Source of the DNA: a virus
UHGV virus genome: UHGV-0248180
Strand: one strand, 5' to 3'
DNA: 37,455 bases
Part shown: positions 2,648 to 7,636 of the stretch, piece after piece
How the letters are laid out: each line of letters begins with the position of its first letter
How positions within the stretch are numbered: the first letter of the stretch is position 1
Position numbers and translations under genes: made by a program
Notes under the pieces: generated by a model
What the model saw: only the letters and a program-made list of their open reading frames with translations
Told to the model about the DNA's origin: nothing
The model's database searches: none

Positions 2648-3128
2648 TTTTAAAAACTCGCTGGTATGATTTAGATGATGGGGATGATGGCATTTCAGTT
2701 GATAGAGTTGACTGGAATGGCTGTTCCGAAGATATGAAAAATTTGCTGATTAGGGAGTTTAGAATGGGATATCAACCAGTTAAGCCATCTACTGCAACAG
2801 ATGATAAATTCGTGTGTATTCATAATGGTCGCGCTAAATTAACGAACACTGATTGGTTCACAGATAAGATTATGATTCTGTGGTATATTATTAGTTTTCC
2901 TGTGACATCATTTATATTTTGCTTCTTTGGAGAAAGTCCAGTAGACAGAACGGGAGATTGGATTATTTTAACCATACTTGTTAATATTTTTACAGCAGCA
3001 ATATTATCTGGGATATGGTACACGTTCATTGAAATGCCATGGCGTTTACGCAGACAGCAAAAGATTTATGATGAAAAGAAATATGCTCAAAATTTAAATA
3101 GCTTTATCACTGAATGCAGGAAATTAAA

Positions 3129-3132
<4 letters not shown>
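2644..3132 (+). CDS. hypothetical membrane protein (162 aa), C-terminal ITECRK motif
   Basis: ORF; ATGA overlap with upstream gene; hydrophobic segments. Confidence 0.55.
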
Positions 3133-4101
<969 letters not shown>

Positions 4102-4172: not shown

Positions 4173-4490
4173 ATGAAAACGTATAAAGAATTTATTGCAG
4201 AATCTGCTGCAGGACAACGTGTAGAAGGCGGTTATATCTGGATTGAACAAGTTGAGCCGCCAAGTCGCACTTCTACAGGTAAATGGAAAATCACTGTTGA
4301 TGGTCCTGGTGGTAAACGTAGGACTCTTAAAGAAATTAACGGGTACTATGAAGAAGCTCTTTCTGACGCGGGTACTTATATGATGCAAATCATGATTAAA
4401 AACCCAGAAAATCGTTTTGCGGCTAGAGTTTTCCGCCGTATTGGAAATAAGCTTTATGATGCATATTCTAAAAACTTCCCTAAAGAATAA
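4173..4490 (+). CDS. Capsid-targeted internal protein (105 aa) with N-terminal CTS MKTYKEFIAE
   Basis: N-terminal capsid targeting sequence typical of T-even internal proteins; located in the ip locus next to e. Confidence 0.75.
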   Translation: MKTYKEFIAESAAGQRVEGGYIWIEQVEPPSRTSTGKWKITVDGPGGKRRTLKEINGYYEEALSDAGTYMMQIMIKNPENRFAARVFRRIGNKLYDAYSKNFPKE

Positions 4491-4506
4491 AAATTAAAGG
4501 ATACAC

Positions 4507-4980
4507 ATGAAAACATATCAAGAATTTATTACTGAAGCAGCTATTAATTCTCAAATTATTGCTGAATCTTTTACTGATCTTTTGAAATTTAAAAAAGGAC
4601 AGAAAATCACTGCTGTATTGGATGACGGTACAGAAGTTGAGATGGATGTACAAGGATATAATTATGCAGTAGATGGAAAACTGTATAATAAATCTCATGC
4701 TAAATTTGATTCATTTGACGACTTTGTTAATACAGTTGAAGATGAAAAAACTCGTAGATCCATTGCAACGGGTGATGCTAAGGTTCTTATGGCACATGGC
4801 CATGAACGCATTCGCGCTAAGCAGAATAAAATGGGTGAAGATAATTTTGCATTAGTTGGTTATCAATCTGGTAAACAAACTTATGGTTATCAACGTACTG
4901 CTACCATGTATAACAAAAATGGTAAAATTGCCTTTGTGAATAGTAAAGGTTCTATTCAGTACGTCAAATCATTCAAATAA
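4507..4980 (+). CDS. Capsid-targeted internal protein (157 aa) with N-terminal CTS MKTYQEFITE
   Basis: CTS motif; leader and RBS nearly identical to the preceding ip gene. Confidence 0.75.
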   Translation: MKTYQEFITEAAINSQIIAESFTDLLKFKKGQKITAVLDDGTEVEMDVQGYNYAVDGKLYNKSHAKFDSFDDFVNTVEDEKTRRSIATGDAKVLMAHGHERIRAKQNKMGEDNFALVGYQSGKQTYGYQRTATMYNKNGKIAFVNSKGSIQYVKSFK

Positions 4981-5073
4981 TATGGGAACAACCTGGACCT
5001 TATGATTCTATAAGGGATTCCCGCCAACCTGTAATAAGGTCGAGCCTGAGTGCGGTAATGGGTAAATACAGAA

Positions 5074-5661
5074 ATGGACAATTCATGCGCCATGGAATGG
5101 CCCAAATTTAGAGAGAATAAAATGAGAACATTTTTAACTGGCCCGTATCTATCCCTGATGAATGCTTTTACACACCATTCTGATGCTAGAGTAGAAGAAA
5201 TTTGTAAAAACGAATATATCCCGCCATTTGAAGAATTACTTAAACAGTACTGCACACTTCGTATAGATGGTGGACGTCAATCCGGTAAATCAATTGCTGT
5301 GACTAACTTTGCTGCTAATTGGCTGTATGATGGCGGAACAGTTATTGTTCTTTCTAATACTTCAGCTTACGCTAAAATTTCTGCAAATAACATTAAAAAG
5401 GAATTTTCGCGTTATTCTAATGATGATATACGTTTTCGTTTATTTACTGATTCTGTGCGCAGTTTTATTGGTAATAAAGGAAGTAAGTTCAGAGGTTTAT
5501 CGCTTTCGCGAATTTTGTATATAATTGATGAGCCTGTCAAATCTCCTGATATGGATAAGATTTATAGCGTCCATATTGACACTGTACACTACTGCTGTAA
5601 TAGTAAATGTTGCATTGGTGGTATTACTCGTCCGCAGTTTTTCGTAATCGGAATGCAATGA
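5074..5661 (+). CDS. hypothetical P-loop NTPase-like protein (Walker A GGRQSGKS, Walker B-like ILYIIDEP)
   Basis: ORF; motifs read from translation; alternative start at ATG 5122; occupies the position where T4 carries denV. Confidence 0.55.
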   Translation: MDNSCAMEWPKFRENKMRTFLTGPYLSLMNAFTHHSDARVEEICKNEYIPPFEELLKQYCTLRIDGGRQSGKSIAVTNFAANWLYDGGTVIVLSNTSAYAKISANNIKKEFSRYSNDDIRFRLFTDSVRSFIGNKGSKFRGLSLSRILYIIDEPVKSPDMDKIYSVHIDTVHYCCNSKCCIGGITRPQFFVIGMQ

Positions 5662-5987
5662 TGACAGACACACAGCTTTTCGAATATCTTTATTTTTCGC
5701 CAAAAACTATTAAAAATAAATTGGTGAATCATTTTGAAATTTTGGCAAATAACAACATTTTGAGCGAATTTTATCCCAAGCAATACAAATTACAAAAAGG
5801 CGTATTCAAAGGATGCAGAGTTTTGTGTACTGCTCCTAACGCGCAGTTAATGAATAAAATTCCATATTTTACCATGGAATTTATTGATGGACCTTTTAAA
5901 GGACTAATCACCCAAAGTTTAATGGCATATGATTCTGAGCCATTTTTAATTAAAGAACAATCTTGGATAAATTTATTTTCTAATTGA
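5658..5987 (+). CDS. hypothetical protein (109 aa)
   Basis: ORF starting in an ATGATGA overlap with upstream stop. Confidence 0.5.
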
Positions 5988-5994
5988 GGTTTAT

Positions 5995-6357
5995 ATGAAA
6001 GCATATCAAATTCTTGAAGGCACACATAAAGGTACTATTTATTTTGAAGATGGTATTCAAGCACGAATTATTGTCTCTAAAACCTTTAAAGAGGACTCTT
6101 TTGTAGACCCAGAAATTTTCTATGGTTTGCATGCCCGTGAAATTGAAATTGAGCAACAGCCTACAGTTAAAATTGAAGGTGGTCAACACCTGAACGTTAA
6201 CGTTCTGCGTCGCGAAACTCTGGAAGATGCAGTTAAGCATCCGGAAAAATATCCGCAGCTGACCATCCGTGTATCCGGTTATGCAGTTCGCTTTAACTCT
6301 CTGACTCCGGAACAGCAGCGCGACGTTATTGCTCGTACCTTTACTGAGAGTTTGTAA
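5995..6357 (+). CDS. Autonomous glycyl-radical cofactor, GrcA/YfiD-like (120 aa)
   Basis: C-terminal ~65 aa ([60 protein letters not shown]) match E. coli GrcA as I recall it, including glycyl-radical motif RVSGY; codon usage of that segment is host-like. Confidence 0.9.
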
Positions 6358-6578
6358 TGGCAAAGATAATTATTGAAGGTTCTAAAGATGTGCTAAATGC
6401 TTTCGCCGAGTGGTTTAGTAATTCAGGCGAACAGCAATTTAATGAAGCGTGGAACATAGGTGATATTGATGGAATTTATCCTACGACAGAAATTTCTGTT
6501 CAGGGATATGGCATTCATGAACCTATTCGTTTAGTTGAATATGATTTATGTACTGGTGAGGAAGTCAAATATGATTGA
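6357..6578 (+). CDS. hypothetical protein (73 aa)
   Basis: ORF, TAATG overlap with upstream gene. Confidence 0.45.
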   Translation: MAKIIIEGSKDVLNAFAEWFSNSGEQQFNEAWNIGDIDGIYPTTEISVQGYGIHEPIRLVEYDLCTGEEVKYD

Positions 6579-7174: not shown

Positions 7175-7636
7175 ATGACTATCAATACAGAAGTTTTTAT
7201 CCGTCGAAATAAGCTTCGTCGTCACTTTGAGTCGGAGTTTCGTCAAATTAACAATGAGATTCGTGAGGCATCAAAAGCAGCAGGAGTCTCATCGTTTCAT
7301 CTAAAATATTCTCAGCATCTTCTTGATCGTGCAATTCAACGGGAGATTGATGAGACATATGTTTTTGAATTATTCCATAAAATAAAAGACCATGTTTTAG
7401 AAGTTAATGAATTCCTGAGTATGCCTCCACGTCCTGACATTGACGAGGATTTTATTGATGGGGTTGAATATCGTCCTGGGCGTTTGGAAATTACAGATGG
7501 AAATCTTTGGCTTGGATTTACGGTTTGTAAACCTAATGAGAAGTTCAAAAACCCGTCACTTCAATGTAGGATGGCAATTATCAACAGTCGTCGTTTACCA
7601 GGAAAGGCTTCTAAAGCAGTAATTAAAACTCAATGA
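7175..7636 (+). CDS. regB: RegB sequence-specific endoribonuclease (153 aa)
   Basis: Translation matches T4 RegB from memory; own Shine-Dalgarno contains the RegB target GGAG (7164-7167). Confidence 0.92.
   Translation: MTINTEVFIRRNKLRRHFESEFRQINNEIREASKAAGVSSFHLKYSQHLLDRAIQREIDETYVFELFHKIKDHVLEVNEFLSMPPRPDIDEDFIDGVEYRPGRLEITDGNLWLGFTVCKPNEKFKNPSLQCRMAIINSRRLPGKASKAVIKTQ

Follow-up and report, generated by a model that had tools for sequence, protein, structure and literature searches.

The virus genome UHGV-0248180 was analysed over a stretch of 37,455 nucleotides (nt), referred to here as the window. Just upstream of its homologue of the T4 gene vs.8 lies an element of ~88 nt (4984-5071) that folds as a pseudoknotted RNA, and every helix of this fold is backed by compensatory substitutions. 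The spacer that contains it represents a real RNA family, also present in T4, that has apparently not been described. From sequence comparison, we consider it rather probable that the element is an autonomous functional (structured) RNA module. An initial annotation had taken 4981-5661 as a site where the pyrimidine dimer glycosylase gene denV was replaced by a P-loop gene. The interest of the region rests on the RNA element and not on the denV/P-loop arrangement.

Secondary structure of the element

The spacer is 141 nt long (4981-5121) and runs from the stop codon of the Ip4 gene to the conserved start of the P-loop open reading frame (ORF), vs.8. It consists of the ~88-nt element and a 50-nt vs.8 leader. 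All features of the element are on the plus strand. Its 5′ part, domain A (4984-5022), is a P1/P2 hairpin domain. P1 pairs GGGAA (4984-4988) with TTCCC (5018-5022). It encloses a 5′ internal loop, CAACCTGGA (4989-4997), and the P2 hairpin, in which CCTTAT (4998-5003) pairs with ATAAGG (5010-5015).

Domain A is followed by a three-way-junction core of P4, P3 and P5 (5024-5061). P4 pairs CCA (5024-5026) with TGG (5059-5061). P3 is formed by ACCT (5027-5030) and AGGT (5037-5040) around the loop GTAATA (5031-5036), and is followed by the joining strand CGA (5041-5043). P5 consists of GC (5044-5045) and GC (5052-5053) around a loop at 5046-5051, and the joining strand GGTAA (5054-5058) comes after it. 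The pseudoknot pairs the 5′ internal loop with the tail beyond P4: CTG (4993-4995) within the loop pairs with CAG (5069-5071), 7 nt past P4.

The loops and joining strands make the junction core near-invariant, with the consensus ACCWGUAAYAWGGUCGWG…GGUAA. The 18-mer ACCTGTAATAAGGTCGAG occurs once in the window, with 0 occurrences expected by chance. With a covariance model of the core, 5017-5070 was the only match in the window (69.8 bits, E 7e-21; 11 bits for the runner-up), and each other locus had one match at 50-77 bits. The invariant P3 hexaloop GUAAUA/GUAACA (5031-5036) presumably has the sequence of the hexaloop of helix 44 in 23S rRNA (1093-1098), which belongs to the GTPase-associated centre, and J3/5 CGAG together with GGUAA presumably resembles a UAA/GAN-type junction.

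Covariation of the helices

To evaluate the core helices, we used 31 distinct core sequences. Paired cells made up 92.3%, as compared to 82.3% after shuffling (none of 500 shuffles reached the observed value) and 24-49% with slid partners. The P4 pair adjoining P3 (pair 10-43) was A-U in 13 sequences and C-G, U-A and U·G in 6 each, and thus paired in all of them. At the loop end of P3, the closing pair (14-21) was U-A in 28 and A-U in 3. The second pair of P5 (29-36) was C-G in 23, U-A in 7 and G-C in 1.

A second T4-like subtype comprises ~167-175 kb contigs with a different domain A. Its 30-pair structure includes P1, a longer P2, P4, P3, P5, the pseudoknot and a 3′ hairpin. In 12 sequences this structure was 98.6% paired, as compared to 19-47% in slid controls, and 5 pairs were changed on both sides. 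P1 showed double changes between G-C, C-G and A-U, and P1/P2 were 98% paired. The pseudoknot was CCG/CGG, CAC/GUG or CGC/GCG at the same columns and was 100% paired. Compensatory changes were also seen within the T4 type. P2 is CCTTAT/ATAAGG in the window and CCTCAT/ATGAGG in T4, and P1 is GGGAA/TTCCC in the window and GGGAG/CTCCC in the locus L025.

Twenty representative lineages were compared for the pseudoknot. In each, the 5′ loop of domain A was complementary to the tail 4-9 nt past P4, and the sequence was different each time. Examples are CCAG/CUGG, GAGG/CCUC, GAAG/CUUC, GGGUA/UACCC, GAGU/ACUC, UCUUG/CAAGA and CGGAA/UUCCG. The mean energy of the loop-tail duplex was -5.08 kcal/mol with a lineage's own tail and -2.72 kcal/mol with the tails of other lineages, a difference reached by none of 20,000 permutations. 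P1/P2 were 99-100% paired within lineages and 48-55% across them, in segments delimited by eye, which biases the comparison. U·G pairs, which would be A·C mismatches on the opposite strand, were frequent. The fold is therefore on the plus strand, which is the sense strand for vs.8 and for neighbouring tRNA genes.

The initial annotation had offered two identities for the spacer, a structured RNA or a recombination scar. The structured RNA is strongly supported by the covariation in the three core helices, in P1, P2 and the pseudoknot of the second subtype, and in the pseudoknot across lineages. The scar was not supported, as the segment is conserved far past the T4-like phages with its base pairing kept.

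Distribution and tRNA context

A sensitive DNA search with 4975-5130 matched 1046 phage records. The matches were full-length in Tequatroviruses and partial, at 74-80% identity, in other T4-like genera with Klebsiella, Salmonella and Enterobacter hosts. The ~45-nt core (5020-5064) was present at 87-93% identity in unrelated phages, namely rV5-like Vequintaviruses (ECP26, CarlMeissner) and Vibrio phages (F94, RYC). The 18-mer was found exactly in 30 stretches of IMG/VR. Relaxed patterns gave the variant ACCA-GTAACA-TGGT in Vibrio phage 1.089.O and CGTG replacing CGAG in the 166E36-1 and 424E50-1 phages. They also gave new metagenomic lineages (L161, L163, L171/L179, L173 and L181). A looser pattern, TGTAATAAGNNNGAG…GGTAA, gave, in IMG/VR beyond the known groups, only matches that look like chance or coding ones, and the locus L108 matched the core model only partially, at 24.5 bits. 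In 185,579 bacterial and archaeal genomes the 18-mer pattern had 65 matches, where ~140 would be expected by chance, and all 65 look coding or chance, those in MreB-like genes being one example. A search of E. coli genomes with the core gave no similar sequence.

The element of the non-T4 phages is located either among co-oriented tRNA genes or no more than a few hundred nt away from them. This was the case in the rV5-like loci L002, L153, L156, L027 and L029, in the Vibrio phages RYC, F94, 424E50-1, 166E36-1, 1.187.O and 1.089.O, and in the contigs L024, L163 and L181. In L163 and L024 the element is embedded between tRNAs. No tRNA was present in the short stretch examined for five lineages (L077, L084, L161, L171/L179 and L173).

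Two lineages showed additional features around the element. In rV5-like phages (L002 ~2440-2460; L027/L156/L158), the repeated motif GGGCTTGA(T/A)AGTGC is located on both sides of the element and is followed by TTGACA-type promoter-like sequences. This suggests that the element is a separate small transcription unit in these phages. In the 133-141 kb Vibrio phages, the element is followed by a second conserved, apparently structured segment, AAUAAAAUCCGAC…CCUCUUCCGC … UCGGAAGG. It is located at ~2560-2640 in L003/L068 and at ~1560-1640 in L066/L067. The RNA may be considerably longer in this lineage.

The vs.8 leader and its separation from the element

The leader of vs.8 (5072-5121, plus strand) is specific to T4-like phages. 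It contains a hairpin, GCCAT (5089-5093)/GGA/ATGGC (5097-5101), that is invariant in T4-like phages, and a Shine-Dalgarno-like AGAGAG (5110-5115).

Salmonella phage STP4-a (L185) carries two copies of the element on the minus strand, at 6273-6326 and 5366-5417. The intact copy (76.6 bits) is located between two internal-protein (IP) genes, with ~230 nt between it and the IP gene that follows. The other copy, directly upstream of the vs.8 homologue, has lost domain A, P4 and several invariant residues and scores 17.3 bits. The decayed copy nevertheless retains the 3′ hairpin GTGCCACGGAACGGCCC and the ribosome-binding region, and 5072-5121 is therefore a leader of vs.8 by itself. From this leader the pseudoknotted element of 88 nt can be separated, and its maintenance does not depend on vs.8. 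The double copy in STP4-a suggests a duplication during insertion of an IP cassette.

Klebsiella phage pzk-kv4 also had two matching places in the DNA search. Two T4-like contigs of ~172 kb, L015 and L028, have a ~45-nt insertion (GGCAAGGAGCCCAATTCGATTCTAGGAAGGAAAAT…) between the pseudoknot strand and the leader hairpin. The element and the leader hairpin therefore tolerate separation.

Composition and coding status of the spacer

The spacer had been described in the initial annotation as unusually GC-rich and ORF-free. Its GC content is indeed elevated, with 43.3% for 4981-5121 as compared to 34.3% for the window, a value at the 97th percentile among windows of 141 nt. Positions 4984-5071, the 88-nt core, reach 47.7% GC (99th percentile). 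However, the enrichment is only relative: the maximum in the window is 51%, and 43% is high for the phage yet not extreme. ORFs are also present on both strands. One of them shares the frame of the P-loop gene and begins at ATG 5074, and the minus strand has a 99-amino-acid (aa) ORF (4956-5255). Neither is conserved as coding sequence, as T4 differs by an 8-nt indel and stop codons.

In T4, Vs.8 (NP_049732) is annotated as a protein of 219 aa that starts within the spacer, with 40 extra N-terminal codons. In the window, the frame of this extension reads ATGATTCTATAA (ATG ATT CTA TAA), which ends in a stop codon. T4 has an 8-nt insertion, relative to the window, just before the conserved ATG. 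The annotated extension has no amino-acid conservation. In rV5-like DNA the sole similarity to "Vs.8" is this extension, and the match is therefore a nucleotide-level match to the element and not a protein match. The T4 vs.8 annotation (NC_000866 64,253-64,912; L001 5254-5913, minus strand) is apparently ~40 codons too long because the RNA element has been translated.

Other gene calls in this region also differ. In T2 (NC_054931; L183 2975-3650), vs.8 is called as a truncated 110-aa ORF, and a 340-nt unannotated gap follows ipIV. Gene callers yield a 195-aa form of Vs.8 from ATG 5074, in a cluster of 1051 members.

denV and the internal-protein cassette region

A tblastn check of the 37-kb window gave no denV homologue (best E 0.87). 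The T4 order is e – ipIII – ipII – denV – vs.8 – vs.7 – vs.6(GrcA) – … – regB. In the window the order is e – 105-aa IP-like gene – Ip4 – element – vs.8 – vs.7 – vs.6. DNA homology between the window and T4 restarts at GGGAAC. In T4 this point coincides exactly with the stop codon of denV, and in the window it comes 3 nt past that of Ip4. Along its full length (the upstream 135 nt of vs.8), the spacer is ~93% identical between the two.

T4 thus has both the spacer and vs.8 downstream of denV, and therefore nothing has replaced denV. The position of denV cannot be said to be occupied by the spacer and the P-loop ORF, since T4 has both beside denV. A gene replacement is contradicted by the same P-loop ORF (vs.8, 92% identity) standing right after denV in T4, together with the nearly identical spacer. 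The initial annotation had named this P-loop ORF at the same position in T4 as evidence that would count against it, and T4 does hold it there.

To sort the relatives, we used blastn with a chimeric query of the window Ip4 gene and T4 denV. T2, RB14, Shfl2, fPS-2, PD112 and others matched the Ip4 half only, at one place per genome, with no denV at blastn sensitivity. Both halves were found near each other in 171 records. The order in wV7 is e – denV – Ip4 – element – vs.8, with denV in the slot of the window's 105-aa ORF. This slot (4173-4490, between e and Ip4) holds denV in wV7/RB32-type phages and nothing in T2, whose annotated order is e – ipIV – gap – vs.8 (truncated call) – vs.7 – vs.6. 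Like the T2/RB14-type region, the window has Ip4 – element – vs.8 – vs.7 – vs.6 – … – regB without denV. Unlike that region, it carries the extra 105-aa IP-like ORF between e and Ip4.

As denV is found in alternative slots among relatives, the differences point to cassette shuffling and not to a swap for the P-loop gene. By these comparisons, the e-to-vs.8 interval is a region of cassette shuffling whose right-hand end is fixed, and the content of the window is T2-type. denV does not belong to this genome type, and other relatives keep it in different slots of the cassette region. The absence of v (denV) function in T2 is the classical reason for its greater UV sensitivity as compared to T4. 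The denV/P-loop part is ordinary: it is the T2-versus-T4 difference in the v (denV) gene, within the known plasticity of the internal-protein region.

Vs.8 and the neighbouring genes

The initial annotation had noted a Walker A motif (GGRQSGKS) and a Walker B-like motif (ILYIIDEP) in the ORF after the spacer, and both were confirmed. Walker A GGRQSGKS and Walker B LYIIDEP are invariant in 12 homologues. The gene (vs.8, 5122-5661, plus strand) encodes 179 aa and has 92% amino-acid identity over 179 aa to T4 Vs.8, which places it in the Vs.8 family (phrog_1488). Residues 3-179 match positions 2-177 of the phrog_1488 profile (177 positions) with E 3.9e-79. Homologues of 179-181 aa begin with MRTF or MKTF, which assigns the conserved start to ATG 5122.

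Homologues of vs.8 were found in 21 clusters only, all T4-like, and none was found near the element in non-T4 phages. Vs.8 is weakly similar to ASCE ATPases (terminase large subunit, E 6e-6; AAA_14, HerA and TraD-like proteins). Searches of PDB, NCBIfam and PADLOC gave only marginal P-loop matches, and the AlphaFold model is poor (mean pLDDT 47). Vs.8 is a predicted P-loop NTPase restricted to T4-like phages. We found no evidence linking the protein to the RNA element.

The window represents a Tequatrovirus (T4-like) segment. Over 4400-6400 it shares 99.2% identity with Escherichia phage FelixPlatter, and 310 phage records contain at least 80% of this region. All genes described here are on the plus strand. 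Upstream of the spacer are nudE (3114-3569), the lysozyme gene e (3607-4101), the 105-aa IP-like ORF (4173-4490; phrog_3966) and the T2-type Ip4/ipIV gene for a 157-aa internal virion protein (4507-4980; DUF7412 PF24183, E 6e-96; phrog_3155). The 105-aa protein has the N-terminus MKTYKEFIAE, a capsid-targeting-type motif. Both the 105-aa and the 157-aa ORFs open with MKTY(K/Q)EFI(A/T)E, as do the N-termini of T4 ipII and ipIII. With this motif and their likeness to named internal proteins, both were assigned to the internal proteins. At the DNA level, the 157-aa gene is 97.5% identical to T2 ipIV and 98.3% identical to RB14 Ip4.

Downstream of vs.8 are a 109-aa vs.7 homologue (5658-5987; 98% to T4 Vs.7), a vs.6 homologue encoding a GrcA-like autonomous glycyl-radical cofactor (5995-6357; PF01228, E 2.5e-18) and a regB homologue (7175-7636), with vs.1 further on. 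The 3′ half of the vs.6 homologue is locally GC-rich (up to 51%), in contrast to its surroundings.

Two existing annotations in related records appear doubtful. In the slur02/04/11/13, teqhal, teqsoen and JK38 records and in the clusters P0005/P0006, vs.8/vs.7 homologues are labelled "endoribonuclease RegB". This looks like a propagated mis-annotation, the actual regB homologue being at 7175-7636. In the T2 RefSeq record (NC_054931; L183 1442-2413), a 972-nt "nudE" coding sequence entirely overlaps the e lysozyme coding sequence (1919-2413) and is probably a fused or mis-called gene.

Comparison with RNA families

To compare the element with known RNAs, we searched Rfam 15. No match overlapped 4998-5119 at E≤10, none was found at the element in L002-L004 at E≤1, and none reached the gathering score across the whole window. 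Literature searches, with the sequence string and for an RNA motif of phage tRNA clusters, found no description, most subscription journals being out of reach.

Three specific candidates were rejected. A tRNA or tRNA remnant is not present in the window (ARAGORN/RF00005), and elsewhere the neighbouring tRNAs are never at the element. Homology to T4 rnaC/rnaD was not found: neither the core 18-mer nor the R1 covariance model had a match in the T4 tRNA region (L005). Membership in the HDV-like/theta ribozymes was rejected because the catalytic C that defines them, the first position of J4/2 (PMC10879173), is not conserved in the element. At this position, which follows P4b, the window, T4 and ECP26 have G, the second T4-like subtype has U, L027 has C and Vibrio F94 has A. 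A catalytic activity of another kind is conceivable.

Discussion

How the element would work can be proposed as follows. It would be transcribed within polycistronic early/middle RNA, and would be released from those transcripts, or act within them, as a structured RNA, like the stable RNAs in phage tRNA clusters. The invariant junction would be a binding surface or pocket for a protein, RNA or small molecule. As the phages with this core have little else in common, the partner would be one found in gamma-proteobacterial hosts generally. In T4-like phages, the conserved 5′ edge of the element would also serve as the fixed right-hand homology anchor for IP/denV cassette shuffling. The duplication in STP4-a argues that the element could act in this way when IP cassettes move.

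Several points weigh against the reading of the element as an autonomous RNA. The folding energy of the single sequence is no better than that of shuffles (z = +0.5) on either strand. The pseudoknot of the window itself has only 3 bp and ranks 12th of 20 in the loop-tail duplex test. The P1/P2 segments of the non-T4 phages were cut by eye, which favours complementarity, and many sequences are close relatives, so that the shuffle controls overstate significance. Part of the near-invariance of the 18-mer among unrelated phages could stem from recent horizontal transfer and not from selection. The invariable location of the element in T4-like phages, immediately before vs.8 or an inserted IP gene, is also what would be expected of a cis-acting leader. 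Both the autonomy of the RNA and the binding of a host factor are inferred from sequence.

A cis-regulatory 5′ leader, riboswitch-like or protein-binding, would control vs.8-vs.7-vs.6 in T4-like phages and downstream tRNAs or ORFs elsewhere. Besides the position immediately upstream of vs.8, constant in T4-type and most other T4-like genomes, it would account for an invariant, aptamer-like junction core with variable peripheral helices and for the location upstream of an ORF and a tRNA array in rV5-like phages. We regard it as possible but doubtful. No terminator or expression platform sequestering the Shine-Dalgarno sequence was found, nor any excess of promoters or terminators around the element. 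The downstream genes vary by lineage, and the element comes after the tRNAs in several Vibrio and metagenomic phages. In STP4-a it is the vs.8-proximal copy that decayed and the distal copy that is intact. No Rfam riboswitch similarity was found. Measured against riboswitches in general, the element has the aptamer-like core but neither the expression platform nor a recurrent class of downstream gene. It is unlikely that the element cuts polycistronic transcripts, or those of tRNA clusters, as a self-cleaving ribozyme or RNA-processing signal. The strand order is analogous to that of HDV-like ribozymes, the association with tRNA genes is that of theta ribozymes (PMC10879173), and the element begins a few nt from the upstream stop codon. 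On the other side, the J4/2 catalytic C is not conserved, P1 starts with G-C and not with G·U, and Rfam gave no ribozyme match. The invariant residues also lie in the domain equivalent to P4, which is dispensable in HDV-like ribozymes.

The remaining explanations would dispense with a functional RNA. A DNA-level element, such as a replication origin or the site of a homing endonuclease or recombinase, would fit the location at the boundary of the cassette-shuffling region, the extreme conservation of the 18-mer and the HNH and other endonuclease genes nearby in some Vibrio phages. It is very improbable, since the helices covary while their sequences change completely, the long-range pseudoknot covaries, and G·U pairs are tolerated on one strand only. 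That the spacer encodes an N-terminal extension of Vs.8 is hardly conceivable, even though T4 is annotated in this way (219 aa) and the 195-aa gene-finder call from ATG 5074 has its 1051-member cluster. The frame is broken by the stop codon in ATGATTCTATAA and by the 8-nt indel before ATG 5122, the extension lacks amino-acid conservation, and the profile covers 177 aa with homologues beginning at MRTF/MKTF. Moreover, the substitutions in the spacer compensate for RNA pairs. We give next to no credence to the replacement of denV by a foreign P-loop gene with the GC-rich spacer as a recombination scar. The absence of denV from the window speaks for it, as does the end of homology to alternative upstream cassettes at the 5′ edge of the spacer. 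But in T4 the spacer and the P-loop gene both adjoin denV, and the spacer is kept, with covariation, by over 1000 genomes and by unrelated phages.

With the autonomous RNA module as the favoured reading, the element is a compact covariation-supported fold that more than 1000 sequenced virulent phages carry. These phages belong to three or more unrelated groups, and T4, T2 and rV5-like phages are among them. More tentatively, it may be a new functional RNA class common to T4-like, rV5-like and Vibrio phages, such as a sensor that binds a ligand or protein, a ribozyme, or an RNA decoy for host tRNA-related or defence machinery. In T4 it would have gone unnoticed because it was annotated as the N-terminus of Vs.8, and the reference annotation of T4 vs.8 is corrected accordingly.

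Three known systems resemble the element in part. The small riboswitch aptamers, for example those of THF-I architecture, presumably share with it a closing helix, a long hairpin, a mini-hairpin, conserved joining strands and a long-range pseudoknot. Unlike THF-I-type aptamers, the element has no Rfam similarity, no expression platform and no consistent downstream gene. The HDV-like/theta ribozymes, which flank phage tRNAs (PMC10879173), share the association with tRNA clusters. The order of the element, P1a–PKa–hairpin–P1b–junction domain–PKb, is analogous to the nested double pseudoknot P1-P2-P3-P1′-P4-P2′ of HDV-like ribozymes, but the element lacks P1.1 and has no G·U at the P1 base. The hosts also differ, being Bacteroidota or Bacillota for these ribozymes and gamma-proteobacteria for the phages that carry the element. 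In contrast to T4 rnaC (species 1) and rnaD (species 2), to which it has no sequence relation, the element lies ~6 kb from the tRNA cluster in T4-like phages. In the non-T4 phages, however, it is like them a small structured RNA encoded with phage tRNA genes.

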